From NCBI GenBank assembly GCA_049974095.1, contig JBMFJD010000006.1:1-32000 (forward strand): a stretch of 32,000 nt of DNA, in the 5' to 3' direction. Position numbers and translations under genes: made by a program. This DNA is from Nanopusillaceae archaeon. Its GTDB lineage: Archaea; Nanobdellota; Nanobdellia; Nanobdellales; Nanobdellaceae. Each line of letters starts with the position of its first letter. Within the stretch, counting starts at the first letter, position 1. Below, piece after piece: positions 5,416-27,665 of this stretch. The notes beneath the pieces were generated by a model, which was not told the origin of the DNA, did not search any database, and was given only the letters and a program-made list of their open reading frames with translations.

Positions 5416-5421
5416 TTTTTT

Positions 5422-5447: not shown

Positions 5448-5466
5448 ATATATAATATAGGTTTTG

Positions 5467-6591
5467 ATGACAGAAAAACAAAGTACTTTGTTAAAAGTAT
5501 TTGAGAGAGCTAGAAAGGAAAGGATAGCAATAGGATTATTTGGGAGTTATGGGATAGGAAAGAGTAGCTTAGTGTATCAATATGCATTAATGAAAAGTAG
5601 GGAGACTGGTAGGGAATTAAAAATATGGCATGAATTGACGGAAAAAGAGAAAAAAGAGATATTAGAAAATCCTGAAAAGTACTTTATAGTAGTAGATATA
5701 AAGGGTAGTTTAATATCATTGGATAATTTAGTGATACCAATACCTGGGGAAAATGGGATAAGATGGGAAATACCTTTATGGATGAAAGTATTTGAAAATG
5801 ATAAAAGTATGGGGATATTGTTTATTGATGAGATTAATATGACATTGCCATCATTACAAAGTCTATTATTTGAGTTAGTATTTCAAAGAAAGTTAGGGGA
5901 AAGTACAATAAAGGGAGATGTATTAATTATAACTGCAGGTAATGATTTGGAAAGTAATAATGTAGCTAAAGAATTACCACAACCGCTTGTTAATAGAATG
6001 ATATTTATTAATGCAAATGAAATATTTGATATTGAGGCATGGTTAGAATATGCAAAAAATAACAAAATAGATAATAGGGTAATCGGATGGGTATTGTTTA
6101 ATAATAGAAATATTAATTATTCTGGTGATGTTATGAAACAATCAACAACACCTAGATCTTTGGAAATGTTAAGTAAGATGATTAATGGGGAAAGGGACAT
6201 AAATTATATAAGGATGGTAGCATATGGATTATTAGAACAAAATGATGCATTACAATTTACTACATTCGTAGAATTATATGAAAAGTTTAGTGATATAGAT
6301 AAGTATATTGATAATATTGAATTATTAAAGGAATTAAAAGAGGATGAGAGGATTATTATTATGATGAAAATAACGGAAAGGTATATTAGTGATAAGTTAA
6401 GTTTAGAGAAATATTATAATGTATTGGATAGGTTAAGTGATATAAGTAAAATGTTAGTGGTATTTGCATTAAGGTATTTGAAATATCAAAATGTTGATAG
6501 GTTTAGGATATTGTTAGATAAGGTAATAAAGGAAAATAGTAAGGTTTATAATTTGTTAGGGCAAATGTTAGAATTTGAAAATAAATTATGA
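5467..6591 (+). CDS. MoxR-like AAA+ ATPase (AAA_5-like)
   Basis: Walker A GSYGIGKS, Walker B ILFIDEINM, sensor-1-like IITAGN. Size is ~375 aa. Its stop overlaps the ATG of the VWA gene (ATGA at 6588-6591), the classic MoxR-VWA pairing. Confidence 0.8.
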   Translation: MTEKQSTLLKVFERARKERIAIGLFGSYGIGKSSLVYQYALMKSRETGRELKIWHELTEKEKKEILENPEKYFIVVDIKGSLISLDNLVIPIPGENGIRWEIPLWMKVFENDKSMGILFIDEINMTLPSLQSLLFELVFQRKLGESTIKGDVLIITAGNDLESNNVAKELPQPLVNRMIFINANEIFDIEAWLEYAKNNKIDNRVIGWVLFNNRNINYSGDVMKQSTTPRSLEMLSKMINGERDINYIRMVAYGLLEQNDALQFTTFVELYEKFSDIDKYIDNIELLKELKEDERIIIMMKITERYISDKLSLEKYYNVLDRLSDISKMLVVFALRYLKYQNVDRFRILLDKVIKENSKVYNLLGQMLEFENKL

Positions 6592-7916
6592 TGGATGAGG
6601 AATTATTAAAGTTAGTAATTGCTAAAAATTTTCCATTATTTGCACCAATATTAAGTAAGATAAGGATAAAGGAAGATAAGAGTTTACAATATCCTGCAGG
6701 GTTGAATTATAGAGAAAGAACAATATATATTAATCCTGATCAATTTGATGAATGTAATAGTAAAGAAAAGATGTTTATAATAGCACATGAGATAATGCAT
6801 TATCTATTAGTACATGATCCTAAAGCATTGAGGGATAAAAATTTATTGTTAGTATTTAATTTAGTTAGGGATGCACAAATCAATCATATATTATATAAAC
6901 AAATGAACTATATGGCAGAGGGGGTTATAACATTAGATATATTAGAAAGTATGAGTGATAAGGTAAGGGAATACTTTGATGGGGATGTTGAAAAATTCCT
7001 TAATGAGGATGAGTATTTTATTGTTAAGTTAATGTTAGAGGATGAGAAAGTTAAGGGGATGATCAATAAGATGATTGATGTATTAGAAAGCGGGGATGAT
7101 CTTGATGAAATTAGTAAGAAAATTAAGGATATATTAAGAGAGAATGGGGTTAATGTGGATTTAGATGAGATTAGTAGGGATATAGTAAAAGAATATAATG
7201 AAAGTAAGGAATTGGGGGAAATGAGTGATGAGGAAATAAGGAAAATTGTTAATGAGGGTATGGAAATGTTAGAGAAAGGTAGGTTATTAAGTAAAATGTT
7301 TAATCCTGAAAGTAAGGAATTAGATATAAAGTTAAGGAAAAAAAGGATTAAATGGAAAGAGGCATTAAGGCAGGTAATGAGTGAGATAGGGGCATTGGCT
7401 ACGGATTATGATTTAACAAAATTGGATAAGAAAGCATGGGTATTAAAGACATATGTACCTGGTGTTATAAAGGAAAATGAAAGTATTAATGTAATAATTG
7501 GTATAGATGTAAGTGGTAGTATTAGTGATTATGAATATATGGAATTTATTAATGAGGTATATAATTTAATGAGTGATGTAAAGGTAAATGGGAAAATAGT
7601 ATTATGGGATGATAAGGTTGAGAGAGTGGTTAAGGTGGATAATGGATGGAATAATGAAATATTGAGAGAATTAAAGAATAGAGTAGGTTATGGGGGTACA
7701 ATAATAAAGGAATTCTTTAATAAGGCTAATGAGTTAGTAAGGAATAAGAGAAATAGTTATTTGATAATATTGACTGATGGGGAACATGAAAAGGTAGATA
7801 GAGAATGGGTTAAGGATTATAAGAAAGTGGTATTTGTTATAAGTAAGAATGGAAAGGTTGAGAATCTGATGGGTATAAAGGATATGAAAAATGTATATAT
7901 TACTTTTTTAGAATAA
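6588..7916 (+). CDS. VWA-domain protein with N-terminal HExxH putative metallopeptidase domain (DUF2201-like architecture)
   Basis: HEIMH in IIAHEIMHYLLVHD. MIDAS-like GIDVSGS followed by LTDGE in the C-terminal half. Translationally coupled to the upstream MoxR gene. Confidence 0.75.
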   Translation: MMDEELLKLVIAKNFPLFAPILSKIRIKEDKSLQYPAGLNYRERTIYINPDQFDECNSKEKMFIIAHEIMHYLLVHDPKALRDKNLLLVFNLVRDAQINHILYKQMNYMAEGVITLDILESMSDKVREYFDGDVEKFLNEDEYFIVKLMLEDEKVKGMINKMIDVLESGDDLDEISKKIKDILRENGVNVDLDEISRDIVKEYNESKELGEMSDEEIRKIVNEGMEMLEKGRLLSKMFNPESKELDIKLRKKRIKWKEALRQVMSEIGALATDYDLTKLDKKAWVLKTYVPGVIKENESINVIIGIDVSGSISDYEYMEFINEVYNLMSDVKVNGKIVLWDDKVERVVKVDNGWNNEILRELKNRVGYGGTIIKEFFNKANELVRNKRNSYLIILTDGEHEKVDREWVKDYKKVVFVISKNGKVENLMGIKDMKNVYITFLE

Positions 7917-7932
7917 TTTTTTTAAAAAAATT
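7915..7932. terminator. bidirectional oligo-T terminator / perfect palindrome AATTTTTTTAAAAAAATT
   Basis: It sits between convergent stops (7914-7916 plus strand, 7931-7933 minus strand) and gives a T7 run on each strand directly after each stop. Confidence 0.6.
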
Positions 7933-8662
7933 AGAGTAAACCGGAATTGTATAACCTTATTGCTTTCCTTATGCTTACACCATCACTAAATAGTTTTTCA
8001 TATTTTTCATCAGGTAATATTACACCTGCTTTTTGTAGAATTTTTTTATATTTATCCTGGTCCATTTTTATCTCAAATTTTAAATCAAACCTATCTAATA
8101 TATACTTTGGTATTTTTGTTATATCATTTGCTACACCTATGACTTGAACACCTTCATTATATACATCTATTAATGCATCTTGTACTGCTCTAGGCATTTT
8201 ATCAATTTCATCTATTAATATACCAAATCCATATGGTTTTGCTACGGTTTTGTAAAATAGTAATTCATTTTTCTTTGTAGTACTTCCTACTGTAAATATG
8301 TATCTTTGTAATCTTGATATTTCTTCTAATAGGTATGATTTTCCAATACCTGAACCACCTACTATTAATATCCATAGTTTGTTTTTCAATCCTATTAAGA
8401 ATTTGTCCCTATCATTATCATCTAATATTGTTAAGTCTATATCATTTATGTCTGCTTTACTGTTCTCAAAATCTGCAATATATTGTTTTCCATCTTCAGT
8501 TATTCTTACATACATGTGTCTATTTGTTATGCTTATCTCTACTAATCCTTCGCTATACATTTTTTTGAACAATTCTTTTATGTTTCTCTCATATCCGCTT
8601 ACTTCTACATAGTCACCTTCTTTTGCTATCTTCTTCAACAATATGTATTTTAGTACGTCCAT
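7931..8662 (-). CDS. compact AAA+ ATPase with N-terminal winged-helix domain (Orc1/Cdc6-RFC clade-like)
   Basis: N-terminal wHTH-like 70 aa. Walker A GGSGIGKS, Walker B ILIDEIDKM, GVAN sensor-1, ILDRFDLKFEI. Lid ends in SDGVSIRKAIRL, which resembles the GDxRxAI motif of clamp-loader/initiator AAA+ proteins. Confidence 0.65.
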   Translation of the reverse strand: MDVLKYILLKKIAKEGDYVEVSGYERNIKELFKKMYSEGLVEISITNRHMYVRITEDGKQYIADFENSKADINDIDLTILDDNDRDKFLIGLKNKLWILIVGGSGIGKSYLLEEISRLQRYIFTVGSTTKKNELLFYKTVAKPYGFGILIDEIDKMPRAVQDALIDVYNEGVQVIGVANDITKIPKYILDRFDLKFEIKMDQDKYKKILQKAGVILPDEKYEKLFSDGVSIRKAIRLYNSGLL

Positions 8663-8708
8663 AATATATTATTGTCTTTAGTATTTATAAACATGTGTTT
8701 GACACATG

Positions 8709-9269
8709 TTAACCATTAGTTAACTTTATAAATTCATTTTGTATATTTGCTAAGTGTTTTAGTACTATTGATTTATCTAAATATGTAAATGATACGATGT
8801 TATGCTTAAAGTCTATTGGGGCAGACCTGTCAACTATTTTAATCCTGCCCTCTTTGTTTACTTTATTCATAAAGAAATCGATAAATAACCCTAATACTGG
8901 TGTGTATTCATCAGCACCAATATATAGCCATATATTTATTGGTTTGTTATAGTCCTCTAGTACATCACCATTTACAATTACTGGTCTGCCATTTTCATCT
9001 AGTAATACATCATAATCTATTATCCATTTATATCCCGCTATCTCTTTGTCTTTATGTTCTTTTAACATTTGATCGATTTCTTGGTATGGGAATACTAGAG
9101 TATCTGGATAGTTTACAGTTAAGTATATACCTCTGTCACCTATAGATACATCAGATGTTTGATAGAAAAATTTTAAGAGATCGTTAAATACTTTTTCAAT
9201 TTTCTTATACTTGTTGTATTGGTTGTCCTTGTTCATACTGGTTTTGTAGGATTTGTAGTAATAATTCAT
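8709..9269 (-). CDS. hypothetical protein (186 aa)
   Basis: ATG ORF. It overlaps the upstream gene by 65 nt; an alternative ATG at 9236 reduces the overlap to 32 nt. No motif recognised. Confidence 0.65.
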   Translation of the reverse strand: MNYYYKSYKTSMNKDNQYNKYKKIEKVFNDLLKFFYQTSDVSIGDRGIYLTVNYPDTLVFPYQEIDQMLKEHKDKEIAGYKWIIDYDVLLDENGRPVIVNGDVLEDYNKPINIWLYIGADEYTPVLGLFIDFFMNKVNKEGRIKIVDRSAPIDFKHNIVSFTYLDKSIVLKHLANIQNEFIKLTNG

Positions 9270-9651
9270 TATCTGATATTAAATCTTTTGAATCTATTGG
9301 TAAGCCTAATTCTTTCATCTTATTAATTAATTGTAGTGTCATGCTTTTGTCAATCCTTTCTAGTAAGGATAATGAAAATATTATGCCTTGATGGAAATTT
9401 TTGTTTAGGTTTGGTATGATATCTTTTCTTGTTATTATGTATAGTGATCCTACTTTGTTTATTGCATATTTATCTAGATTGTTTATTACCCTATCTAATA
9501 CTCTGTGGTATACTATCTGGGCTACTGTCCTGCTAACCTGTTCATGTTTTATTATTTCTGGTATTGATAGATATAGTACGCCTTTCTGATCTACTTCTTT
9601 TAAAAGAGAATTTACATGTAGTTCAAGTTCTTCTTTACTTATCCTGCCCAT
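9205..9651 (-). CDS. hypothetical protein, possible winged-helix DNA-binding protein (148 aa)
   Basis: ATG ORF. The segment LSIPEIIKHEQVSRTVAQIVYHRVLDRVINNL..SLYIITRK looks like an HTH plus wing. Confidence 0.6.
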   Translation of the reverse strand: MGRISKEELELHVNSLLKEVDQKGVLYLSIPEIIKHEQVSRTVAQIVYHRVLDRVINNLDKYAINKVGSLYIITRKDIIPNLNKNFHQGIIFSLSLLERIDKSMTLQLINKMKELGLPIDSKDLISDNELLLQILQNQYEQGQPIQQV

Positions 9652-9740
9652 AAAATATTTTATCGATAAATATGTTTTTAAATATTTGTTTTCATGTGTG
9701 ATGTTAGATTTATGAAAATTTAGTATATTTATTATATATC

Positions 9741-9914
9741 GTTTAAAGAAAACTAGTAGTATTGAAAGAAATGTATTGAAGGAAATAGATCCGTTTAAAG
9801 TAAACTAGGAGTAGATGAACCCGATAAGGGGGATTGTTAAAACAAACCTAGAAGGTTTGAAAGATGGGGCTCGATAAGAGCCGACGGGTTATAAAAAACC
9901 TAGAAGGTTTTTTT
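9741..9914. repeat. four degenerate 27-28 nt CRISPR-repeat-like direct repeats, period 52/43/52 nt
   Basis: R1 9741-9768 GTTTAAAGAAAACTAGTAGTATTGAAAG. R2 9793-9820 GTTTAAAGTAAACTAGGAGTAGATGAAC. R3 9836-9863 GTTAAAACAAACCTAGAAGGTTTGAAAG. R4 9888-9914 GTTATAAAAAACCTAGAAGGTTTTTTT. Inter-repeat segments are 24, 15 and 24 nt and carry small GC hairpins with GATAA-type loops. Confidence 0.55.
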
Positions 9915-10824
9915 ATTCTATTTTTCCAAAGATTACTATTAATGGTTTTTGTAGATCTTTATCTTCTGTAAATACTTTTGCGTTTGTTATAGATCTTAAG
10001 TACATGTCTATTAGTCCTTGACCTTCATAGAATTTTTTAACACCTTCTCCCATTGTATAATATCTCATACCTTTAGATGCTTCTCTTATATCGGACATAA
10101 ATAGACCTGTGTTTAGTAATACGTATTTCCATGCCTCATATACATATTTGTTTTCTGGTGTTTGGTCTATTCTTTTACCATTAAATAATATATAGTAGTC
10201 CCATGGTTTCATCACGTACTCTACCTTGTCAACACCTATTTTATATTTAAGGTCTAATTCTATATCACTGCCATTTTCTACCCTATTTTCACCAAATATT
10301 CTAATTAATTCATTTTTTACATTTGTAAATTCTTTTCTTGATAACCAGTTTATGAATTTATCATCCCACAGTACTTTTGCGTTTAATTTTGTTAATGATG
10401 TTGTAACTAATAGATTCCAGTCATCATTTTCTTCCATTGATACATAACCATCATATCTGGCAGATACGTATAGGTTTTTCATTGTATTACCTGTTGATAC
10501 ACCAACATCTGGTGTTATATAACATACGTTTTTACTACAGGTATCTTCTAATTCTTCTACTAATTCTTTTAATCTTGGGTTTCTATTATGGAAAATATAA
10601 TAATTGGAACCTGGGGTAAAATCATTACCTGTATTTCTACTAATTGCTCTTAATGATGCATCTGTAAATCTAAATTTTTTACCATCACCAGTTTCACATG
10701 TATAAAAGTTATAACGAACTTTACTGGTCTCTAATCTACAGACCATTTCGTTAGAATTTTCGAATATCTTTCCTACTATGTATAATGAATATGTTGATGA
10801 GTCTATTATGTATGTATCTGTCAT
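9913..10824 (-). CDS. hypothetical protein (303 aa)
   Basis: ATG ORF. Its stop is embedded in hairpin R4 (9893-9913). No motif recognised. Confidence 0.7.
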   Translation of the reverse strand: MTDTYIIDSSTYSLYIVGKIFENSNEMVCRLETSKVRYNFYTCETGDGKKFRFTDASLRAISRNTGNDFTPGSNYYIFHNRNPRLKELVEELEDTCSKNVCYITPDVGVSTGNTMKNLYVSARYDGYVSMEENDDWNLLVTTSLTKLNAKVLWDDKFINWLSRKEFTNVKNELIRIFGENRVENGSDIELDLKYKIGVDKVEYVMKPWDYYILFNGKRIDQTPENKYVYEAWKYVLLNTGLFMSDIREASKGMRYYTMGEGVKKFYEGQGLIDMYLRSITNAKVFTEDKDLQKPLIVIFGKIE

Positions 10825-10885
10825 ATATTATTTATTGCTATTTTTGTTTAAATGTCTAGTTCTCATAAATATTGAAACATGATTA

Positions 10886-12871
10886 TCATTCGCTCGATTT
10901 TCTTCTTTTCTTTATTAATATTAATGGGATAAGTACTAATGCTGAGATGGTAAATATTGTAGATGTAATTGTTATATAGTTGAATTCTCTGGTCATTGTT
11001 GAGTGTAGATATATTTGTATTGATTTGTTTATGGTTATATTTTTTGGATCTATTGTATATATGTCATAGTAAAAGAAATGGTCTTCTACCAGTACTGATT
11101 TATTGATATATATTTTCTGGTCTGCGGGTAAATAATCTGAATATGATTTTATATTTGTTATTGTTGTATTTCCTATGGTTATATTTATTGGTATTTGAGA
11201 GTCTATTTTCACATAGTATTCGGGGGTACAATAGTTTAGTAATTGTATTTCTCTTGATCCGTATGTTGTTATGTATATTTGATTTGGACATTCATACCTT
11301 AGATCATTATAGTAGTAGTATTTTTCTAATGATATAGATAATGTTGTACCATTCTTAGCATAAATAGTACCTTTACCAATGTATTTTTGACCATCTACAT
11401 AATATACACCGGCAGGTATTGTAAAGTTAACCTGGTATTCTGGTACACAATAGTTTAGTAACTGGACTGTTCCTGGACTGTATACTGGTACATATACTAA
11501 ATAAGGACATTCATATCTTATAGCATCGTAGTAGTAGTATCTATTAAGGTATACTATTATAGTTGTACCATTTTCGACAGTAAAGGTATTTCTACCCTGG
11601 TACTGTTTACCATCTATATAGTATGTGCCATTTGGTAGGATAAGATCAACATAATAATATAGAGTATAATCTGGATTAATCGTGTAAGATTTATTAATTA
11701 GTAATGGTATAACCGGACCAGGGTAAGATACGTTATTTACATATATGCCTTTTAGGTAATAATATCCACCAGGTACATATATTTTTGGTTGGAAAGTATA
11801 TATTTTGTACAGGACTACTGGGTATTGTTCTATATGATATCTTTTTGTTATTGGGTCATATATGGTTACTGTAAATGGTTTGTATGGTACATTGCCTAGA
11901 TAATCTGGACGGAAATTATCAGTATTTAGGTATACTGATGTTGAGGATACTGGTAATGGATTGATATTTGTTGATGTTTCTGCTGTGGACAGTCCATAGT
12001 TAAATACGTAAGGGACTGGTGTTAATATACCGTTGTTATTGTATAGTAATGTTAGATACCCACTTACTTGAGTTACATACACACAGTCCTCACCACTTAA
12101 ACCACCTATAACTAATTCAAGATTTTGTGGTGATTCTACTGGTGTTAATTGTGGAGCAACCTGGAAATATGCAGATTTTGATGGTACTTGTATTGTTACA
12201 TTATCATACCAGATTATATTATTACCATCTGTTGAATATCCAAATTGTATTACTGGGTAATTACCAGACATGGTTACATTGGTAATTAAGTATATTACAA
12301 AGGGGTAGGCTAATGAGTATTTGTTAGTGTAATATATGTAGACATAAGTATAACTTAGAAGAGGTGGATAACCATACATACTACCTTTACCAGACAATAG
12401 TTTACTTTTAGCTATTGTTTGATACTTATCTATTTCCCAGATATTATTTACTAATCTATAATAGTTGTTATCATTATTTATATCTACTGTATTCTGGACC
12501 CATAGATAATATGTTTTTCCATCATCAGCATTAATTAATAGTACGCCGTTTAGTTGTATGGATGAAGCATCATAATATTTTTCTTTATTACATTTGTTAC
12601 CAGGTCTGACATGTAAGTAATCTAAATATACAAAGCCAATTATTTCGTTTGTTATATATGAATACTGGTATGCTTCACCATTTTTAATTGCAATACCATA
12701 GTCTGAAATTCCTATTGGCATATAGATTAAATTTGGGTTGGACGGGTCTGGTTTAAAATTTTGTACAAATGAGTCATAACAACCATAACCATTAATAACA
12801 CATGTTTGTGCTATTGAAAAAGGATATATGGCAGGTAGAGATACAGATAGGGATAGACCAAAAAGATCCAT
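10886..12871 (-). CDS. thermopsin-family (peptidase A5-like) protein with two C-terminal ~73-aa repeats and a C-terminal membrane anchor
   Basis: Residues ~45-305 align by eye to Sulfolobus thermopsin as I recall it: PIGISDYG, YITNEIIGFV, SIQLNGVL, YYLWVQN, NNIWE, ELVIGG and ILTPVPYVFNYGLSTAETS. Tandem repeats occupy aa ~406-479 and 480-552. The C-terminus is a TM segment followed by KKRRKSSE. Many N-x-S/T sequons. Confidence 0.65.
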   Translation of the reverse strand: MDLFGLSLSVSLPAIYPFSIAQTCVINGYGCYDSFVQNFKPDPSNPNLIYMPIGISDYGIAIKNGEAYQYSYITNEIIGFVYLDYLHVRPGNKCNKEKYYDASSIQLNGVLLINADDGKTYYLWVQNTVDINNDNNYYRLVNNIWEIDKYQTIAKSKLLSGKGSMYGYPPLLSYTYVYIYYTNKYSLAYPFVIYLITNVTMSGNYPVIQFGYSTDGNNIIWYDNVTIQVPSKSAYFQVAPQLTPVESPQNLELVIGGLSGEDCVYVTQVSGYLTLLYNNNGILTPVPYVFNYGLSTAETSTNINPLPVSSTSVYLNTDNFRPDYLGNVPYKPFTVTIYDPITKRYHIEQYPVVLYKIYTFQPKIYVPGGYYYLKGIYVNNVSYPGPVIPLLINKSYTINPDYTLYYYVDLILPNGTYYIDGKQYQGRNTFTVENGTTIIVYLNRYYYYDAIRYECPYLVYVPVYSPGTVQLLNYCVPEYQVNFTIPAGVYYVDGQKYIGKGTIYAKNGTTLSISLEKYYYYNDLRYECPNQIYITTYGSREIQLLNYCTPEYYVKIDSQIPINITIGNTTITNIKSYSDYLPADQKIYINKSVLVEDHFFYYDIYTIDPKNITINKSIQIYLHSTMTREFNYITITSTIFTISALVLIPLILIKKRRKSSE

Positions 12872-13440
12872 TATAATTTTTTGCCTGAGAATATTCCAAA
12901 TGGATTATTTAACCATACAAAGAACGTTATTGCTAATATTGCTATTGTAAGTAATATTTGTATTATTAAGACTAATTCTACCTTTGATATTGCTTTATCT
13001 ATGTTGTTTTTATTTCTTAAATATAATATTATTGCTATTATTAGGAATATGAAGAATAAGAACCCGTAAGAGAATGCTCCAAATAATGAGGATAGATAAT
13101 TGTTTTTAGTTATTGCATGAGCAATTGATGCTATTATTAGTCCCATAGCAACAGATAGTATTGATATTAATGATTTAGTTAATAGGCTTAAGATGAAAGT
13201 TATTATTAGAAATATATATATTAGGGTTCCTGCTGTATTTCTTGATTCTGGTGCAGATCTGGCAACTAGTACTACTACTAGAGTTAATACCATCATTAAG
13301 AACATTGCTACATATGCTATTAGAAAACCTGTATACGACAATTCTATATTTTGGCTAAATAGTATTTTTACTAAAACATATCCTGCTATAAATGATATTA
13401 TTGCAATAAATGTATTTAGGAGGTTATTTTTCTGGGCCAT
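12871..13440 (-). CDS. polytopic membrane protein (~6 TM)
   Basis: The ORF-track start at 13458 is a TTG; the first ATG is at 13440 (MAQKNNLL). The sequence is highly hydrophobic throughout. Its stop overlaps the thermopsin-like ATG (TAATG). Confidence 0.7.
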   Translation of the reverse strand: MAQKNNLLNTFIAIISFIAGYVLVKILFSQNIELSYTGFLIAYVAMFLMMVLTLVVVLVARSAPESRNTAGTLIYIFLIITFILSLLTKSLISILSVAMGLIIASIAHAITKNNYLSSLFGAFSYGFLFFIFLIIAIILYLRNKNNIDKAISKVELVLIIQILLTIAILAITFFVWLNNPFGIFSGKKL

Positions 13441-13454
13441 AGTATTATATAGAA

Positions 13455-13476
13455 ACAAATATTTATATGTGTTTTT
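13455..13476 (+). promoter_or_regulatory. promoter-like element ACAAATATTTATATGTGTTTTT pointing into the inverted repeat, with no ORF downstream
   Basis: It matches the block A promoter cassette at 20 of 22 positions. Its first 20 nt are identical to the reverse complement of 31333-31352, upstream of the RHH gene. On the plus strand the only downstream reading is ATG GTA AAA AAC TAG. Confidence 0.45.
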
Positions 13477-13601
13477 GGTGGTATGGTAAAAAACTAGTTT
13501 TTCTAAATATATATATTATGAAAGTTATTACCGATTTTTGCATGTTAAGTCGTATATTAGGAAGATATGTATAAAGGTAGGGAATTTTGGTAAGCCATAG
13601 A

Positions 13602-14401
13602 GGAATGAGTTTATAAATGTTTGCGCCTCAAAATTTGACTAAAATTTATCTTTTATTTCGGACCCCCCTTAACAAAAAAGAAAATCACCTTTCTGTTCCA
13701 ACTTTGAAGTGATAAAAATAGTATATTATATTATGTTTTGTTTAGAATATATACAATATATAATATAGAAAAAATTTATAAATTTTTTATAATATGTGTT
13801 AATATGTGTTACATTTGTTTTTATTTGTTCACATATTTATATTTGTTATTTGCTATATGTGTTATTATGTGTATATGTTACTATTGTTACTAAGTAGTAG
13901 TTACATAAATGTATTTATAAATATATCGATATAAATATATATTATATAGAATAGCATGTTTAAAAAATATATATAGAAAAATATATATTAAAAAAAATAT
14001 ATAGCTAGAAGTATGTCAAAAAATAAATGTCACTACTTATTAATAATAAATAGTAACATAATAATTTAAATAATTTTTTAATAATAATAATAATTTATTA
14101 TTATTATTAATAACAACTACTTAGTAATAATAGTAAATATAAGTAACTACTGTATAGTGGTAGTAGTAAAAATAACACATATTTACACATATAACACATA
14201 AAAACACATATATAGAAAAATTTATAAATATTAAGTACAATATATAGTATAACTATTTCTATGTTAACAAATAATTGATATCTATGTTATCACTTTTTAG
14301 TAAGGGCAGTTTTTGGTAAAAGTTTTTGTGAAAGGGGGGTCAAAAAATAAATGATAAATTTGAGTCCAATTATGAGGCGTAAAAATTTATAAATACATTC
14401 C
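13602..14401. repeat. large imperfect inverted repeat: arms ~13602-13904 and ~14110-14401, spacer ~205 bp
   Basis: Arms align as reverse complements at about 75-85% identity by eye. C6 (13663-13668) mirrors G6 (14334-14339). TTACTATTGTTACTAAGTAGTAGTTAC (13878-13904) mirrors 14110-14136. Confidence 0.85.
13905..14109. other. nearly pure A/T core of the inverted repeat (candidate DNA-unwinding element or terminal-repeat junction)
   Basis: (A)nTATATA(T)AG direct repeats at 13962-14005. ATATCGATAT palindrome at 13923-13932. The (AAT)5..(ATT)4 palindrome at 14080-14111 runs just past the core into the right arm. Confidence 0.5.
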
Positions 14402-14514
14402 AAAATATACAAAAATACTTTCTATAGGAATACCTGTACATTCTATAAAGTCATGATAGACGTTCAAAAATAAGATGCGAATTTCTTTTAAAGTTATCTG
14501 AAATAATATATTTT

Positions 14515-15081
14515 ATGGAAAATACCTATAGGATAGTACAAGGGATACGCAATCTTTATAGTGGAGTACCTCCCTATGCTGTTAGTTTTAGAAAGAGAGG
14601 TAAATTTCTAAAAGATGCGTTTAAAGCATTAGAGAAACTTTTTGAAGATGGTACTTATAAAGATATATCAAAAGCTGCAATTAATTTATTAGAAATATCA
14701 ATAATGTATAATATTACAGAAAGAGCTTCTAGAGATTATTTAAAAGATTTCCATTATTTGTTTGTTGATGAATCATCGAATAAAAACTATGCTTATTTTG
14801 ATGATGAAAAGATTAAAATTGATAATAATAATGAAAGGAAGGTTCAGGCTTTAATTATAGATATTGATAAAATAAAACAAGATATCTATACAACAATAGA
14901 GATGGCTAAAAAAGTGTTAGATCAAGAAGGATCTTTTATATATAGATATACTGATTATTCTGTACCAGAAAAATTTATCGGAATCGTATTAGAGAATGAA
15001 TTTAAACCAACGCATAAAGTATGTAAAACAAGTTATAAAAAAGATGGCCTAATCAAATATATCATTATAATTACGGTATAA
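14515..15081 (+). CDS. hypothetical protein (188 aa), paralog of the next gene
   Basis: ATG ORF and the first gene right of the inverted repeat. Shares ISKAAI..ASRDYLKDF, YFDDEKIKIDNN and GSFIYRYTDYS with the equivalent positions of 15083-15631. Confidence 0.7.
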   Translation: MENTYRIVQGIRNLYSGVPPYAVSFRKRGKFLKDAFKALEKLFEDGTYKDISKAAINLLEISIMYNITERASRDYLKDFHYLFVDESSNKNYAYFDDEKIKIDNNNERKVQALIIDIDKIKQDIYTTIEMAKKVLDQEGSFIYRYTDYSVPEKFIGIVLENEFKPTHKVCKTSYKKDGLIKYIIIITV

Positions 15082-15082
15082 G

Positions 15083-15631
15083 ATGAGTGAATTTGAGATA
15101 GATTTAGGTAGTAAATTGTATAGAATAAATGGTATTATGTTTACTTTTTATCCTCGTAGATTAAATAAAAAAGAAGAACTTGCATTATCGTTATCTGAGA
15201 TACTATATGAGATTGCTGAAAAAGGTTTTTCATATATACTAATAGGATCAAAAGGTATAATAAGCAAATCTCAAATAATGTCAGTATACGATGTAGACTC
15301 TAGTACAGCAAAAGAGTACCTGGATTTTATAAATAATGAAATGAAAAAGCTTGGCGATGATATATCATATATCGACAATGATGTATTATACATAAATTTA
15401 GATAAATTTGTTGAGAGGATTATAGTAATATTGAAAAGATTAAATAAAAAAATAAGAAAGAAGGGGTTTGTTCTTATAACTTATACAGATAAGGACATAA
15501 TAAAAAATATATTGGTTAAATTCTTGAAAGTTAGGTATATGACCAATGACTATAAGATCTACGAAGACTATTTACCTGTTGGACGTGGAAAATTTTACAT
15601 AATGGTACGTAGAAATTATAAAATATATTAA
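15083..15631 (+). CDS. hypothetical protein (182 aa), paralog of the previous gene
   Basis: Starts 2 nt after the previous stop. Carries ISKSQI..TAKEYLDFI, YIDNDVLYINLD and GFVLITYTDKD. Confidence 0.7.
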   Translation: MSEFEIDLGSKLYRINGIMFTFYPRRLNKKEELALSLSEILYEIAEKGFSYILIGSKGIISKSQIMSVYDVDSSTAKEYLDFINNEMKKLGDDISYIDNDVLYINLDKFVERIIVILKRLNKKIRKKGFVLITYTDKDIIKNILVKFLKVRYMTNDYKIYEDYLPVGRGKFYIMVRRNYKIY

Positions 15632-15680
15632 TTAAATATGGTGATTAAATATTAAAAAAGATTTTTGGTAATACAAATAT

Positions 15681-17813
15681 ATGGCAGCGGAAAAAGGAAA
15701 AAAAGATAAATTTGTTTTTAGCGGATCCATTATATCACTACAGCAACTCGAGGCCTATATACCAGATAAATTGAAAGAAATGTATATAAATTTTTTGAAG
15801 CAACAAGCCCAACAAATTACACTTGTTGACCAGTCAGCAAGATACTATTTTGAGATAATTAAAAAGCAAGCTATCGAAAATTTCTTTAAATTAGAAGATT
15901 TTGAATATACTTTTATAAATTTTGAAGATTTATATAAGTTTTTACATTCTTTAAAGAAAGGATCAGAATTTAGTAAAGCAGGAAGTGTAATTAAATATTT
16001 ACTACAACATTATGTGAATGAAGATCTACAGATCACATGGCACCTTCCAATATTCGTAAAAAATATTCCTGATAATTATACAAAAACTGTAAAAGAATTT
16101 TTTAAATCAAATGATGACGATATTGTTATCTTGAAAGGCATTATCAATTCTATAACATATATAGAAGGTATTCCAAGATATTTTCTAATTCAACACTCAT
16201 TGTGTGGAGGTAGGTTCTTAATTGAGAATGATATACCAACTAATAAAGATTTGAGGAATATACTAAAAGTTAAAGTAAATTCATGTCCATTGTGTGGCTC
16301 TCCTGAAGGCCAATTTATTGTTGAGCATATTGTTACAACAAATGCATATAAGTTAACAATAACCGATATTCCTAAAGATGAAGGAAAAGAAATACAATCT
16401 ATTGAGGCATATCTATTTGGTAGTGCAATAGATATGTATAGTGTACAACATACAAGAGTTAATTTGGTTGGTATTGCCAGGAGGGTATTTGATGGTAAAG
16501 AAGCAAGAGCATATTTAGAAGTTATTGGTATTGAACCTACAGAAAAAACAGTAGAAGATATAGAATTAAAAGACGAAGATATAAGAAAGATTGAAAATAT
16601 TGTTAAGGAATCCGGATATGATATAATTGATATGGTAGCGGAATCTATGTTACCAAATATAAAAGGAGAGCATTACAAATATATTAAAAGAGCTGTGTTA
16701 TTACAGGCTATATCTGTTAGTCAACAAAAAGAAATTGATTTATTAGCAGATAGATTACATATAAATATATTGTTATTAGGAGATCCAGGTACAGGTAAAT
16801 CTACATTATTAAGAACAATTGCAAAATTAATACCTAGATCAAGATATACTGTAGCTACTTCCTTAACAAAGGCAGGTTTACTGGGTACAGTTACAAAATC
16901 TGAAGAGGGTAAATGGGTATTAGAAATTGGTGCATTACCATCCGCATCTGGTGGAATATTATGTATTGATGAAGCAAATAAGTTATCTTTCGATGATATA
17001 AAATCGTTAAATGAGGCAATGGAACATGGAACAGCAACAATCGATAAGGCAGGTGTACATGTAACATTAAGGGCAAATGCAGCAGTATTAGCAGCGGCAA
17101 ATCCAAAATATGGAAGGTGGGATCCAAATAGGGAATTAATAAGCCAGATAGATATAGAACCAACGATGTTATCAAGGTTTGATTTAATATTCGTATTGAG
17201 GGATATACCAAACAAAGAACAAGATATATTAGAAGCTATGGAGATATTAGGAAGAAATAAAGTTAAAAAGATGTTATTCGATAAAGATTTTATATTAAAA
17301 TACATAGCATATGCTAGAACAATAAACCCAGAATTAACTAGCGAAACGGAAGCATATATTGCAAAATTATATGCTGATCTAAGGGATAAAACCAAAGAAG
17401 AATTTCCAGTAACTAGAAGGCAATTACAAACAATAAGAAGGTTGGCAATTGCTATTGCAAAAGCAAGATTAAGCAATGTTGTTACAAAGGAAGATGTTGA
17501 TTATGCATGGGAAATAATGTCAAATAGTATATATAGCATTATTGGTAAAAATGCTACTGTTCTGGATTTTGGTGTTGTTGAAACTGGAGTTAGGAGTAGC
17601 ACAAAAACCAGAACAATGTTAGTAAAAGAGGTTATTCAACAATTAAATAAAATGTATGGTAAAGGTGTTACCTTTAATGATATATATAATTATCTAAAAG
17701 AAAAGTATAATCTAGATATATCTCAATATGAGCTTAGAGAAATTATTAATGTATTGAAACATACTGGAGATATATATGAACCAGATGAGGGTTTATACCT
17801 TGCAATATTTTAG
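15681..17813 (+). CDS. mcm: MCM replicative helicase, full length (710 aa)
   Basis: N-terminal Zn-motif HSLCGG...CPLCGS. Walker A GDPGTGKS (DNA ~16779-16802), Walker B ILCIDEANKL, sensor-1 AAANP, arginine finger SRFDLIFVL, lid RRQLQTIRRLAIAIAKA, C-terminal winged helix. Confidence 0.9.
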   Translation: MAAEKGKKDKFVFSGSIISLQQLEAYIPDKLKEMYINFLKQQAQQITLVDQSARYYFEIIKKQAIENFFKLEDFEYTFINFEDLYKFLHSLKKGSEFSKAGSVIKYLLQHYVNEDLQITWHLPIFVKNIPDNYTKTVKEFFKSNDDDIVILKGIINSITYIEGIPRYFLIQHSLCGGRFLIENDIPTNKDLRNILKVKVNSCPLCGSPEGQFIVEHIVTTNAYKLTITDIPKDEGKEIQSIEAYLFGSAIDMYSVQHTRVNLVGIARRVFDGKEARAYLEVIGIEPTEKTVEDIELKDEDIRKIENIVKESGYDIIDMVAESMLPNIKGEHYKYIKRAVLLQAISVSQQKEIDLLADRLHINILLLGDPGTGKSTLLRTIAKLIPRSRYTVATSLTKAGLLGTVTKSEEGKWVLEIGALPSASGGILCIDEANKLSFDDIKSLNEAMEHGTATIDKAGVHVTLRANAAVLAAANPKYGRWDPNRELISQIDIEPTMLSRFDLIFVLRDIPNKEQDILEAMEILGRNKVKKMLFDKDFILKYIAYARTINPELTSETEAYIAKLYADLRDKTKEEFPVTRRQLQTIRRLAIAIAKARLSNVVTKEDVDYAWEIMSNSIYSIIGKNATVLDFGVVETGVRSSTKTRTMLVKEVIQQLNKMYGKGVTFNDIYNYLKEKYNLDISQYELREIINVLKHTGDIYEPDEGLYLAIF

Positions 17814-17866
17814 TTCAATTTTTTTATACCATAAATTTTTAAATATGTATCTTAATATTTACTAAT

Positions 17867-18892
17867 ATGAAATTGAAGTATCTGGCACTTGCTACATTTA
17901 TTATATTTACATTTAATATATTTGCTCAACCACCATTCTGGCCAATAGCATCAATAAAAACAGTTAGTGGAACATCTACACAATTACCACTTTATACAAC
18001 TCAACTAGTATACCAGCTAGATATACCACAAAATACTACATTACAGTTTGTTAGAATAAAGATACCAAGTTCAGTAATACAACAGCAATATCAATACTGT
18101 AAAACATACGATTCGTATATAACAAATAATATACGCGACATAAAACAATGTGTTCATGCATACCCTGCAATAGTTTTTCTTTATAATCCGAATACCAGAT
18201 CTACATCAGCACATGATGTAACATATGCTATTGTACCAGTATCATACGATAGCACTACTGGTTTGCCAGATACATTTGATATATTCTTAAATAATCGTAT
18301 TGGTGCACAAGCACCTGGTACATACTATTTATATGTATATTATCCATCGCCATATTATCTTACATTTGATACAATATTTGATCCATATACAATGCCACAA
18401 TGTGTAGATCCTAGTTATGCTACATCTAAAGACTTTAATGGTGGATGGTGTTCGGATACTGGAGGATTTGGTAGCTTTTATAATGCTGAAGCCTTTCCTG
18501 GATATGTTTATCCTTATGCACAATCGCTTTATTATCATGGGGGTAGTTATGGTTGTGTTGGCGTGGGTGGTGTCAATTTAACAAGATATTTTAATGTAAA
18601 ATTTGATCCTCAATATCCTGTATTAATTGGATTTATGTCAACAGGATTTACTCCTGCTTTTGGTGGTTATATTACAGTAGGAAATCCGTCTACAGGCCAA
18701 ATTCAAACAATATATGTCCCTGCAGGAAACGTATTATATGACTTAAGAACGTTAGAGTTAGGTCAAGGATTGAATCCATATCAATGGAATTTAATAATAA
18801 ATGTAAAACATGGCGCTAAATCACAAGGTGTTTGTTATGATGTTGACTTTTATCCAACAGGTATATATCTACAATATGTACCTGCAACATAG
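17867..18892 (+). CDS. secreted protein (341 aa), Y/T/P/Q-rich
   Basis: N-terminal signal-like MKLKYLALATFIIFTFNIFAQPP. Contains sequons NTT and NLT. Inserted between MCM paralogs. Confidence 0.7.
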   Translation: MKLKYLALATFIIFTFNIFAQPPFWPIASIKTVSGTSTQLPLYTTQLVYQLDIPQNTTLQFVRIKIPSSVIQQQYQYCKTYDSYITNNIRDIKQCVHAYPAIVFLYNPNTRSTSAHDVTYAIVPVSYDSTTGLPDTFDIFLNNRIGAQAPGTYYLYVYYPSPYYLTFDTIFDPYTMPQCVDPSYATSKDFNGGWCSDTGGFGSFYNAEAFPGYVYPYAQSLYYHGGSYGCVGVGGVNLTRYFNVKFDPQYPVLIGFMSTGFTPAFGGYITVGNPSTGQIQTIYVPAGNVLYDLRTLELGQGLNPYQWNLIINVKHGAKSQGVCYDVDFYPTGIYLQYVPAT

Positions 18893-18932
18893 AGTATAAC
18901 CAATATAAATATTTGTTCATAAAATATGTATT

Positions 18933-19790
18933 ATGGATTTCCAAGATCTAGTGAATGGTCTATTCCCATCACTAAAAGGTCATATTTACAAATATATTAG
19001 ACAAGCTGTTGCATATCAGTTAATCTCTATAGGAAAAACACCTTTCTTTAGAGATTCTATACATATATTACTTTTAGGAGAACCTGGTACTGGTAAATCT
19101 CATATGTTAAAATATGTTAGCATGATACCTGGTAACAAATATGTAAATGGTGAGAATCTTACTCTAGCTGGTTTGGTTGGATATATTAGCATGTACACCA
19201 TGCAACAGGGTGTTGTATCAACAGTAAATGGTGTATTATGTATAGATGAAATAACAAAATCAAGTAAAACTGTTAGGGAGAGGATGAATGAACTATTAGA
19301 AGAATTATCTGTTACTATTACAAAAGCTGGTAAAACGATAAAATATGATGTAAATCTTGCTGTACTTGCTGCTACAAATCCAAGGCATGGGGTATTTAAA
19401 GGTAAGGATATTATTGAACAGATAGAGTTACCTCCAACAGTTATTGACAGGTTTGATTTGATATTTGTATTAAAAACACAAAATATAGATAAAATAACAA
19501 ACGAGACCTATGTATTTGATAATAATGAATTGGTAAAATATCTTAATGAAGTAAGAATGATAAATCCATCTTCTAGTACTGTTGATTTGAGTAAATTAAA
19601 TATAGGCTTTCCAACATCTGGTGTTTATTTATCTGACAGAAGATTGATGACTGTAATAAGATTAGCAAAAGCAATAGCAAAGTCCTATAAAGATAATGTA
19701 ATTAGGGACGAATATATACAAGAGGCCGAAAAATTCTTTATCAAAATAGTAAATAGATTATTTGGGTATGATATACAAGATTTTGACTAA
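18933..19790 (+). CDS. MCM AAA+ core-only protein (285 aa; lacks the N-terminal OB/Zn domain and the C-terminal wH)
   Basis: Begins at the linker motif LFPSLKGHIYKYIRQAVAYQL (compare MLPNIKGEHYKYIKRAVLLQA in the 710-aa MCM). Walker A GEPGTGKS, Walker B LCIDEITK, LAATNP, DRFDLIFVL, lid LMTVIRLAKAIAKS. Confidence 0.8.
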   Translation: MDFQDLVNGLFPSLKGHIYKYIRQAVAYQLISIGKTPFFRDSIHILLLGEPGTGKSHMLKYVSMIPGNKYVNGENLTLAGLVGYISMYTMQQGVVSTVNGVLCIDEITKSSKTVRERMNELLEELSVTITKAGKTIKYDVNLAVLAATNPRHGVFKGKDIIEQIELPPTVIDRFDLIFVLKTQNIDKITNETYVFDNNELVKYLNEVRMINPSSSTVDLSKLNIGFPTSGVYLSDRRLMTVIRLAKAIAKSYKDNVIRDEYIQEAEKFFIKIVNRLFGYDIQDFD

Positions 19791-21570
19791 TAAAGATCCA
19801 TACAATTTTGTATATAACAATAACCCATATGATGTAGTCATAGGTTTATATTACAATAATTCTTTAATCATAGATCTAGACCAGTACAACAACATAATAT
19901 CATCTGTTACTAACGATTATTTTAATTTACCAAAAACATTAGTACCATTTTCAACAATATTAAATGCATTACTTAATTTGCAAAATTCTCTAGATATACT
20001 TGATACTGGTGCTATTATACAGTTGTTATCTGGTAATGTAAAGGTATCGTCAAATAAACCATTGATATTCTTTATAGTAAGGGATAGAAATAACCCTCTA
20101 TACAATATATTGAAGTCAAAATATAATCTGTATGAAGTATCTCTCAAGACTGCCCGCATAAAAGATCATTCTATATATCTTAGGAGGATAGTGTGTTCAT
20201 CTGGTCACTATATAATAACATGGAAGAAATATCCTCCAATTGTTTGTCCAATATGTACTATGAAAGGACAAATATCTAAGATTGTCGGATTCACAGATTT
20301 CATATATTCTGATAAGATGATTGTATTACATGACGAATATGGAAAGATGAACATAATTACAGATACAGATCTATATGATTTTATGAAAAAACTAGATACA
20401 GATTACAAGTTAATAATAATGGATATTTCTCCCTATAAACATGAATTAAAAGAAACAAGAATAAATAGGTTATTCTATGCTGTCGGACTATTAATTGAAG
20501 ATAAGAGAACCTATAATTATGATGAGATAATAACATTCTTTAACCTAAATATTGATGATAAGATAAGATATATGTTAAATGGTAGTAGGGTTGATGATCT
20601 GGTCATATCTTTACCATTGATGTTACAACAAATCGATAAATTTACAGTATTATATATTGATATTAACCAGAAATATATCCCACTAATATTTGAGTCTTAT
20701 AGTAAATACAATAATGCATCTATAGAAAATCTAACAGAAGTAGAAAATCCTGTATTGATGAATGTACAAGATTTACCTGCAGGTATAAGGTATAAAATAA
20801 ACAACATATTATTAAACCATGAGATGAATCTGGTCATGTTATTTAAATATTCTTATGGATTTAGGGTTGTAGATTTTACATCATTTGATTCATTTTATAA
20901 CTCATTGTCAAGATCATTTTTAACTTTCTTTGATAAAATAGATTTTATTGTTCCATATATTGTTGATTTTGAATTTGAAACAACTGGTAAAAATTTGAAT
21001 AATATATTTAGTTTCATTAGACATACTATTAGATCTATAAAAATATATGATAGAAATTTTGATAATATGTTTTATTCAGAAGTTGAAAGATTGGGTAGAG
21101 TATATAGTCAATACAGTGAAATGATTGCATATAAAAAACAAACTATATATAAGTTATCAAAGATATTTGCCATATTGAATAAAAAGAATAGGATAGATCT
21201 TGATGATATAAGATATGCTATTGGTTATTTTAGTGTGATACACCTATTACCATTTACAATAACAGATATGAAGGCAAAAGATGTTTTAGACCTATACAAA
21301 GATTATATAAAGTTCATATATAATAGATATTTGAATGTACAGGAACAAAAAAGAGTTATTGCTACTAAAAAGGATGTAGAGGAATTAGTATATGAAGTAT
21401 TGAGAACTGGTCCTAAAACAATAATAGAAATTAGAAGAACAATAGATAATATGCGTAACAAATTCGTAATAAAAAGTGGTATTAATCTATACATAATGGT
21501 TGAGAGAGTTCTTAATGAGCTAACATCTCAGGGTAGGATTAAATATAACAATGGTATGTATTCCATATGA
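19768..21570 (+). CDS. MCM-like protein with degenerate ATPase motifs (about 600 aa)
   Basis: OB/Zn-like segment RRIVCSSGH..VCPICT..FIYSDKMIVLHDE fits the MCM N-domain pattern. Positions equivalent to Walker A/B read FTVLYIDINQKY and RVVDFTSFDSF, with no GK[ST] and no DE. Lid-like YKLSKIFAILNKKNRIDLDDIRYAI. C-terminal wH ends in GRIKYNNGMYSI. ATG at 19768; the TTG at 19762 is in the ORF track. Confidence 0.5.
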   Translation: MIYKILTNKDPYNFVYNNNPYDVVIGLYYNNSLIIDLDQYNNIISSVTNDYFNLPKTLVPFSTILNALLNLQNSLDILDTGAIIQLLSGNVKVSSNKPLIFFIVRDRNNPLYNILKSKYNLYEVSLKTARIKDHSIYLRRIVCSSGHYIITWKKYPPIVCPICTMKGQISKIVGFTDFIYSDKMIVLHDEYGKMNIITDTDLYDFMKKLDTDYKLIIMDISPYKHELKETRINRLFYAVGLLIEDKRTYNYDEIITFFNLNIDDKIRYMLNGSRVDDLVISLPLMLQQIDKFTVLYIDINQKYIPLIFESYSKYNNASIENLTEVENPVLMNVQDLPAGIRYKINNILLNHEMNLVMLFKYSYGFRVVDFTSFDSFYNSLSRSFLTFFDKIDFIVPYIVDFEFETTGKNLNNIFSFIRHTIRSIKIYDRNFDNMFYSEVERLGRVYSQYSEMIAYKKQTIYKLSKIFAILNKKNRIDLDDIRYAIGYFSVIHLLPFTITDMKAKDVLDLYKDYIKFIYNRYLNVQEQKRVIATKKDVEELVYEVLRTGPKTIIEIRRTIDNMRNKFVIKSGINLYIMVERVLNELTSQGRIKYNNGMYSI

Positions 21571-21826: not shown

Positions 21827-21829
21827 TAT

Positions 21830-22435: not shown

Positions 22436-22539
22436 AGCTGAGATATATCATCTATGTAATATTAGCCTTGTATACAATATTTACAATATATCAATATCCG
22501 TTTACACTAAATGCGATAGCAACAATTATAAAACCTTAA
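22432..22539 (+). CDS. small hydrophobic peptide (35 aa, one predicted TM), not in the ORF track
   Basis: Its ATG overlaps the RAMP-like stop (ATGA at 22432-22435). Sequence: MKLRYIIYVILALYTIFTIYQYPFTLNAIATIIKP. Confidence 0.35.
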   Translation: MKLRYIIYVILALYTIFTIYQYPFTLNAIATIIKP

Positions 22540-23358: not shown

Positions 23359-23369
23359 CAACATACTTT

Positions 23370-27664: not shown

Positions 27665-27665
27665 T

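Follow-up and report, generated by a model that had tools for sequence, protein, structure and literature searches.

An inverted repeat with an A/T-rich core is a candidate Orc1-independent replication origin in a probable mobile element of Nanoarchaeota

We analysed a 32,000-nucleotide stretch of archaeal DNA (contig JBMFJD010000006.1, positions 1 to 32,000; hereafter the window), which is filed, with a sister contig, under a Nanopusillaceae metagenome-assembled genome (MAG) and probably belongs to an unclassified extrachromosomal element of nanoarchaea from hot springs. Between two divergently transcribed gene blocks, at 13602–14401, lies an 800-bp imperfect inverted repeat around an A/T-rich core; this repeat is real and has been maintained in evolution. 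With moderate confidence we read it as the bidirectional origin of the element, a site of MCM loading that would work independently of Orc1 and of origin recognition box (ORB) sequences and that would be flanked by symmetric promoter/operator modules. An origin is favoured because the locus combines a core apt to melt, mirror-image repeat arrays, adjacent helicase genes, divergent transcription and co-evolution of a replicator with its putative specificity factor. Almost nothing is known about the mobile elements of the tiny, host-dependent Nanoarchaeota, and there is hardly any understanding of how MCM helicases encoded by viruses and plasmids of archaea locate and melt the DNA that carries them. 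Should a more elaborate and tentative version of this reading, set out in the Discussion, hold, it would be the first time that an origin had been defined for a mobile element of the Nanoarchaeota, and the loading of viral or plasmid MCMs could be studied here in compact form. The locus offers a candidate of ~800 bp with separable parts (the core, oriented arrays and exchangeable symmetric outer modules) and three small candidate proteins encoded next to it, namely two winged-helix paralogues (HTH1 and HTH2) and an MCM.

Results

The segment 13500–14010 was aligned with the reverse complement of 14011–14520 by gapped local alignment, with 200 dinucleotide shuffles as the null. The alignment pairs 13602–13960 with 14055–14401 over 380 columns, comprising 267 matches (70%) and 54 gap columns, and scores 162 as compared with 35.6±5.3 (maximum 62) in the shuffles. 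This bears out an earlier note on this DNA, which had described an inverted repeat by eye. The same note had put the identity of the arms (~13602–13904 and ~14110–14401) at 75–85%; this describes the ungapped blocks, which are 78% (13602–13679/14324–14401), 74% (13746–13829/14174–14257) and 92% (13878–13903/14111–14136) identical, but not the arms overall, which are ~70% identical with gaps included and contain many indels. The reported match of the innermost arm ends at 24 positions was recovered in the last of these blocks (24/26), and the C6 and G6 strings to which the note had drawn attention are both present and mirror-placed, at 13663–13668 and 14334–14339. When folded as single-stranded DNA, the arms pair with one another (−134 versus −66.9±5.9 kcal/mol, z = −11.4). 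No second inverted repeat of comparable size (at least 40 nt, arms within 3 kb) was found in the window. The repeat is the divergence point of the two gene blocks, the genes from 7931 to 13458 running leftward and those from 14515 to 29823 rightward, in agreement with the orientations given before.

The junctions that we compared are those of the window and of four relatives: L001 (JGI 3300041912), L007 (JGI 3300039096), L008 (ENA ERZ1669249) and the pair L015 and L016 (Logan SRR6344961). Inverted-repeat scores are 163 for L001, 135 for L007 (34.6±4.2 in shuffles) and 150 for L008 (31.7±4.7 in shuffles). L015 and L016 are two unitigs that overlap by exactly 30 identical bases and form a fifth junction, which was completed by one short contig retrieved in a homology search with the left flanking gene, a search swamped by hydrophobic words. 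An inverted repeat around an A/T core is found at the same divergent junction in these five independent assemblies. The four-junction alignment used below excludes L015/L016; together with landmark positions it resolves the region into three tiers, namely the core, the inner arms and the outer arms.

Among the 12 related contigs, 7 end inside the repeat region, at differing positions (208–468 nt upstream of HTH1, or at the dyad described below); contigs ending in the region are drawn from L002, L003, L009–L013, L015 and L016. The break between L015 and L016 is the 30-nt overlap, which lies within a palindromic ACACATA..TATGTGT pair. These contig ends look like assembly fragmentation at repeats and at very A/T-rich DNA.

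The asymmetric A/T core (13906–14144, no strand) is a candidate unwinding element on the grounds of duplex stability and identity between loci. Its centre, at 13912–14112, has 9.5% G+C, in line with the nearly pure A/T composition noted earlier, and no other 200-bp stretch of the window forms a less stable duplex (z = 3.85); the core is also the stability minimum of the window at 100 bp (z = 3.70) and at 400 bp (z = 3.56). Within the core lie the central TTTATAAA box (13914–13921), runs of TAA/TTA, the stretch ACTTATTAATAATAAATA (14034–14051) and a 22-nt run, AACATAATAATTTAAATAATTT (14055–14076), that is identical in the four aligned junctions. Direct (A)nTATATAG repeats, also reported earlier, do exist (period 14, 3 copies, 13963–14004), but they are in part a 25-nt expansion that the relatives lack: over 13933–14004 the other junctions of the four-way alignment are short by 25 nt (12 + 13).

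Two dyad-like elements, TTACTATTGTTACTAAGTAGTAGTTA on the left (13878–13903) and AACTACTGTAYAGTGRTAGTARTAA on the right, flank the ~250-bp asymmetric core, the orientation of which is constant across the junctions; the palindrome at the centre of symmetry is only 6 bp long (TAGCTA). The right dyad element, AACTACTGTATAGTGGTAGTAGTAA in the window (14145–14169, no strand), consists of ACTACT, 10 nt and AGTAGT. It takes the form AACTACTGTAYAGTGRTAGTARTAA in four junctions, and the L015/L016 junction differs by one further change. When the right-dyad pattern was scanned against a viral contig collection and in metagenomes, no unrelated contig matched, and the metagenome scan added one contig of 1 kb only.

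Identity of the core between loci is 0.85–0.95; shuffles of like composition reach 0.70 when aligned with gaps. The cores of L001 and L008 are 0.96 identical with 3 gap columns. The corresponding figures for MCM DNA are 0.79–0.97 overall and 0.63–0.94 at four-fold sites. A stronger claim, that the core is conserved far beyond coding DNA, was dropped since shuffled A/T-rich sequence already starts from so high a baseline. The core also contains an open reading frame (ORF) of 18 codons (14013–14069, +), encoding MSKNKCHYLLIINSNIII and a stop, which is intact in four of the five junctions with conservative K/R and H/Y changes. In L007 this ORF has a TGA at codon 5; its 3′ two-thirds are invariant even at synonymous sites, which points to constraint at the level of the DNA.

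The inner arms are built of short phased units in opposite orientations on either side of the core. The left inner arm (13771–13905, +), analysed with Tandem Repeats Finder (TRF), motif counts and orthologue identity, comprises the middle TTTATAAA box, TATGTGT units and the left dyad. The box sits within a 20-nt palindrome, AAAAAATTTATAAATTTTTT (13769–13788); forward TATGTGT units start at 13793, 13803, 13856 and 13866, accompanied by degenerate TTTGTT units, and TRF finds a period of 10 for TAATATGTGT at 13790–13811. The right inner arm (14173–14228, −) consists of four reverse units, TAACACATAT (14173–14211; period 10, 4 copies by TRF), followed by the middle TTTATAAA box at 14221–14228. The two strands of the window together contain 13 copies of TATGTGT, of which 8 are inside the repeat, where 0.33 are expected. 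Polarity is strict, with four forward units on the left arm and four reverse units on the right, at a spacing of 9–11 bp.

The right array is longer in relatives, by 18 nt in L001 and L008 and by 37 nt in L007, and L013 also has a longer array. The left inner arm is 93–96% and the right inner arm 96–99% identical to the orthologues in L001 and L007, and identity to the L008 orthologues is 75–94%; the two inner arms of one genome are ~75% alike. In L003, TTATCGATAA palindromes stand at the place of the TATGTGT units of the others (L003 60–90).

Each outer arm ends in a module containing a promoter-like box that faces outward. The left module (13602–13680, no strand) holds a palindromic TTTATAAA box at 13610–13617 together with the C6 run, and the BRE-like sequence GCAAACA precedes the box on the minus strand, which gives it its outward direction. 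The right module (14324–14401, no strand), which pairs with 13602–13679, holds the G6 run and GGCGTAAAAATTTATAAAT; the latter is a BRE-like sequence with a TATA-like box (14386–14393) facing outward to the gene at 14515. The G-string and GGCGTAAAAATTTATAAAT are also found upstream of the HTH1 homologue in a distant relative, L003. Spacers separate the middle from the outer TTTATAAA boxes, on the left at 13681–13770 (no strand; arm-specific, 62–66% identical to L001 and L007) and on the right at 14229–14323 (no strand; 63–66%). The distances in bp between middle and outer boxes on the left and right are 165 and 165 in the window, 168 and 171 in L001, and 168 and 170 in L007.

The outer arms pair within a genome (z = 15.5 in the window and 17.5 in L008), whereas those of the window and of L008 cannot be aligned as orthologues (z = 0.3–0.7), so that symmetry has been kept through complete replacement of the sequence. 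To judge from these alignments, such symmetry requires copying between the arms, selection for symmetry, or both, and the replacement of both outer arms together around a fixed core shows that the inverted repeat is apparently kept by function and not by descent. Outer arms of the L008 type have three CTACTTTATAAAT units each, together with a GCGTCAAATTGACGC hairpin and a C7 run (L008 2332–2400 and 2961–3030).

Comparison of L001 with L008 along the locus reveals which segments change together. Identity is 0.88 in the left gene, 0.56 in the left outer arm, 0.78 in the left inner arm, 0.84 in the right inner arm, 0.51 in the right outer arm, 0.59 in HTH1, 0.80 in HTH2 and 0.85 in MCM. Both outer arms diverge with HTH1, though the conserved core lies between HTH1 and the left arm, which adjoins a conserved gene; the proximal promoter regions also co-vary with HTH1. 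L007 combines an L008-type MCM (97%) with an L001-type HTH1 and L001-type outer arms, the HTH1 genes of L007 and L008 being 71% identical. HTH2 has reassorted independently: at the DNA level the window gene shares 96% identity with its L007 counterpart and 65% with those in L001 and L008. The reassortment in L007 and the pattern of segments between L001 and L008 argue that the outer arms are the DNA with which HTH1 pairs. No other evidence at the locus speaks as strongly on protein–DNA pairing as this natural reassortment, and on these comparisons HTH1 is a candidate specificity factor for the outer arms.

Both operons have proximal promoter blocks of their own outside the repeat. The leftward block (13441–13547, −) is 92–94% identical to those of L001 and L007 and contains, as read from the sequence, TATA-like boxes ~25–35 nt upstream of the ATG at 13440. 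In the rightward block (14402–14514, +), CTTTTAAAG occurs at 14486, 29 nt ahead of the ATG start codon at 14515, and this box is conserved in L001, L013 and L003. The TATGTGT arrays are 250–330 bp away from the proximal promoter boxes. A scan for bacterial-type promoters and terminators returned 19 sites where 16 are expected, and no terminators, and is uninformative here.

The first rightward gene encodes HTH1 (14515–15081, +, 188 aa), for which an N-terminal winged helix and a C-terminal Alba-like α/β domain are predicted (AlphaFold2 model, pLDDT 90.9). The C-terminal part matches the Alba fold (probability 0.99, rmsd ~3.2 Å over ~70 residues). Among whole-chain matches in the PDB, those ranking next after the best are to the winged helices of TFE and TFIIE and are non-significant (E ≥ 3.7e-3, TM ~0.2); no significant match was found among viral protein models, nor by sequence profile against the PDB. 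HTH2 (15083–15631, +, 182 aa) is a distant paralogue of HTH1, with an hhalign profile–profile probability of 76.6% (E = 2.1e-5, 143 columns).

A full-length MCM helicase follows at 15681–17813 (+), 1.3 kb from the repeat, with Pfam matches to MCM (E = 1.8e-64), MCM_lid and the archaeal MCM winged helix. Only four close relatives of this protein were found among 5.8 billion proteins, and the next matches are at most 38% identical. Its N-terminal ~300 aa (15681–16580) have no Pfam MCM_N or MCM_OB match and retain an invariant H-x2-C...C-x2-C zinc motif; this divergent domain could carry origin recognition. An MCM AAA+ core alone is encoded at 18933–19790 (+, 285 aa, 4.5 kb from the repeat; Pfam MCM E = 1.3e-38). 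On the other side, the best Pfam match of a 243-aa AAA+ protein (7931–8662) is to the MCM P-loop and is weak (E = 4.3e-7). Where three MCM-derived genes and a Cdc6/RFC-like AAA+ gene had been proposed, there are one full MCM, one MCM core and this weak P-loop match, and neither Cdc6/Orc1 nor RFC finds support. The first leftward gene (12871–13440, −, 189 aa from the ATG at 13440) encodes a hydrophobic, probably membrane protein that had no family matches.

The window MCM is 100% identical to MGC9133246.1, a Nanopusillaceae MAG protein on a 59,894-bp contig; HTH1 has the accession MGC9133244.1. A 35,048-bp sister contig of the same MAG (locus-tag prefix ACP5GJ_ on both) carries a copy of the module that is 75–80% identical; one Nanopusillaceae MAG holds two related copies of the element, which may be misbinned extrachromosomal DNA. 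The recognizable genes are those for MCM-type AAA+ proteins, a thermopsin-like protease, a VWA/DUF2201 metallopeptidase and a weak MoxR-like AAA match; the other window ORFs had no matches in Pfam, PHROGs or NCBIfam. The window contains no tRNA genes and no Rfam matches at the gathering score or at E = 1. Nucleotide searches with the repeat returned nothing from phage or plasmid collections, and a protein search with the 609-aa ORF matched no phage. The near-empty scans of viral contigs and metagenomes indicate that the element family is rare in the collections searched. From the gene content and the reassortment of modules, the replicon is probably an extrachromosomal element (a plasmid or virus) and less likely a cellular chromosome.

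Further features of the window lie away from the repeat. Five tandem paralogous genes at 1034–5415 encode proteins of ~280 aa of no known family (22–29% identity to the first), in a stretch of ~20% G+C whose coding strand shows an extreme GC skew (+0.7 to +0.8). At 5464–7916 and 10886–12871, a MoxR-like AAA gene adjoins one for a VWA/DUF2201 metallopeptidase, with a 661-aa thermopsin-like protease nearby (Pfam E = 9.4e-51); L001 has the MoxR-like, VWA/DUF2201 and thermopsin-like genes in the same order. A sub-threshold Pfam match to the anti-CRISPR protein AcrF1 at 31406–31996 (E = 0.0047, 17.6 bits versus a cut-off of 30.5) is probably noise.

Discussion

We infer protein binding, helicase loading and origin activity at the repeat from its layout and conservation. 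A conserved factor would bind the flanking dyads and the phased TATGTGT units, whose polarity is reversed from one side of the core to the other; candidates for this factor are the element MCM, through its divergent N-terminal zinc domain, and a winged-helix partner. The symmetric sites would place two MCM hexamers head to head over the ~200-bp A/T core, which would be the first DNA to melt, and the forks would leave co-directionally with transcription of the flanking gene blocks. The outer arms, with their outward BRE/TATA-like boxes and lineage-specific repeats, are probably recognized by HTH1, which would couple the expression of both operons, and possibly origin firing too, to one specificity factor.

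A more elaborate form of this proposal, which we put forward as tentative, is an Orc1/Cdc6-independent replicator of two tiers that loads the element MCM symmetrically. A shared core tier would consist of the A/T element, the dyads and the mirror-image 10-bp arrays, and the exchangeable outer specificity modules would be read by the winged-helix/Alba-fold protein. The TATA-like boxes of the arms, facing inward or outward, may in addition supply RNA polymerase transcripts that activate or prime the origin, a suggestion made because no primase is visible.

Several observations weigh against an origin. Genes at 1–7916 point back to the repeat, so that on the left co-orientation with outgoing forks spans 5.5 kb only. 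The local GC and AT skews track the coding strand, are uninformative about replication and were for that reason rejected as evidence on the origin. Once calibrated, conservation of the core appears roughly like that of coding DNA and above that of synonymous sites, a modest excess. Pfam and NCBIfam scans of the window ORFs detected no Orc1/Cdc6, Rep or primase, and the best whole-chain PDB match of HTH1, to the iteron initiator RepE, is non-significant (E = 3.7e-3, TM 0.22). The extrachromosomal status of the replicon is itself what we infer from gene content, and in the viral contig collection pattern scans retrieved neither a relative by the MCM alignment nor a sequence fitting the 25-nt dyad. 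The ORB/mini-ORB core is TTCCAGTGGAA, with invariant TTCC and GAA (PMC1904270). A scan for TTCCAGTGGAAA with at most 3 mismatches gave 13 hits in the window, where 27 are expected, and none in 13602–14401; a scan for TTCCNNTGGAA with at most 1 mismatch gave 4 hits where 5.4 are expected, and none in the repeat. The repeat lies outside the ORB/Orc1 class of oriC. The earlier proposal of an origin is strengthened by conservation in five assemblies, the stability minimum, the phased opposed units and symmetry kept through turnover, but the analogy with an ORB-type oriC that came with it has to be given up.

The most substantial competing explanation, which we consider possible but rather unlikely, is that the region controls transcription only. 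The repeat would then be a set of promoters and operators, duplicated in inverted form, through which HTH1, perhaps with HTH2, governs both divergent operons symmetrically, for instance as an early or immunity switch, and it would have no origin function. Five of the 12 TTTATAAA boxes of the window fall in this intergenic region, the BRE-like sequences direct the outer boxes towards the flanking genes, and winged helices of transcription factors are among the structural matches of HTH1. The co-variation of the outer arms and proximal promoter regions with this winged-helix protein fits an operator just as well as it fits a replicator. Against this, both flanking genes already possess a conserved proximal TATA-like box, 25–35 nt from the start codon and outside the repeat, the TATGTGT arrays are far from those promoters, and it is not obvious what an operator would do with a conserved, asymmetric and extremely A/T-rich core of ~250 bp, the point of lowest duplex stability in 32 kb. 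Moreover, the inner arms and core are conserved across relatives in which HTH1 has diverged to ~40% identity.

Other explanations are less probable still. A partition (centromere-like) or packaging site, with phased repeats bound by the adjacent small DNA-binding proteins, is an improbable alternative: two such paralogues are indeed encoded next to the repeat, and phased 10-bp arrays in two clusters around a promoter recall plasmid centromeres such as parC of R1, yet the arrays here are inverted and those of parC-type centromeres direct, no gene of ParA/ParM or terminase type was detected in the window, and the conserved neighbours are MCM genes rather than genes for segregation or packaging. 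We attach very little probability to a fusion of inverted terminal repeats from a linear viral or plasmid replicon, whether as a circularized or concatemeric form, a hairpin-telomere replicative junction or a telomere-resolution site. The mirror-image arms and the contig ends in the region would suit such termini, and TTGTT/TGTGTT repeats in the arms are reminiscent of the termini of lipothrixvirus AFV1. Contigs from five datasets cross the junction, however, the contig ends are scattered and one of them is an assembler overlap in a palindromic repeat pair, and the arms are neither near-identical nor joined by a perfect central palindrome. Each inner arm resembles its orthologues more than it does the other arm, the reverse of what termini homogenized at each replication would show, and the asymmetric centre is conserved in one orientation. 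A fold-back artefact is contradicted by the different flanking genes on the two sides, and no protelomerase, tyrosine recombinase/integrase, protein-primed polymerase or Rep nickase was found in the window. The fused-terminal-repeat or head-to-head reading that the earlier note had offered beside an origin is rejected on these grounds. At the bottom of the scale we place a mobile MITE-like insertion with terminal inverted repeats, or else a gene for a small RNA or peptide present as two copies in inverted orientation. The two ends, GGAATG..TTTATAAAT, are mirror images, but the unit is single-copy in the window and in related loci, has no target-site duplication and is fixed in location in all relatives. 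Mirrored ORFs of 51 and 39 aa in the arms, and the short core ORF, might suggest small genes; those in the arms arise as a by-product of the TGT/TAT repeats, and in relatives a 7-nt indel disrupts them, while the core ORF is interrupted in L007 and constrained at its synonymous sites, and even the permissive Rfam search gave no small RNA.

A replication origin, our favoured reading, can be set beside several known systems. In the MCM-encoding elements of archaea (haloarchaeal tailed viruses, Methanocaldococcus fervens tailed virus 1 and Thermococcus elements), MCM is the main recognizable replication gene, as it is here, although their MCMs are at most 33% identical to that of the window. We know of no origin of this architecture for MCM-encoding archaeal viruses or plasmids. 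No nanoarchaeal virus is known to have been reported besides NAV1 (Munson-McGee et al. 2020), reportedly a 35.6-kb circle.

In the core origins of SV40 and other polyomaviruses and of papillomaviruses, which span ~64 bp, inverted recognition repeats lie by an A/T tract between divergent early and late promoters, and two virus-encoded AAA+ helicases of the SF3 superfamily assemble there head to head. The repeat described here resembles these origins in its inverted short repeats, A/T tract and divergent promoters. It differs from them in being far longer and in that the helicase is not an SF3 protein but belongs to an unrelated superfamily, being an MCM for which recognition of the repeats is a candidate role only.

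With iteron origins (RepE of F, RepA of pPS10 and π of R6K) the repeat shares phased short direct repeats of variable copy number and an A/T element. As in iteron plasmids, a small winged-helix protein is co-encoded, and autoregulation could run through inverted sites close to the promoter of its gene. In contrast to the single direct array of classical iteron origins, there are two mirror-image arrays around a core, and the units are ~10 bp rather than 17–22 bp long. HTH1 is also modelled as a winged helix with an Alba-like domain and not as the double winged helix of iteron Rep proteins, and the element encodes its own MCM helicase.

Archaeal origins in general consist of an A/T-rich unwinding region flanked by inverted repeats that bind the initiator, with the initiator gene alongside (PMC4010727), and the repeat matches oriC in having an A/T unwinding element, inverted flanking repeats and neighbouring replication genes. 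It departs from oriC in that the repeat lacks the ORB core (TTCC..GAA) and the window an Orc1/Cdc6 gene, the neighbouring gene is that of the helicase itself, the units are ~10 bp long and phased, and the replicon is apparently mobile. An initiator other than Orc1/Cdc6 has a precedent in Sulfolobus oriC3, where the initiator is the winged-helix protein WhiP (PMC4010727). Archaeal replicators evolve in step with their specificity factors, and the two are exchanged as modules (PMC4010727); the same pairing and the same exchange of modules are what the outer arms and HTH1 appear to display in this element.

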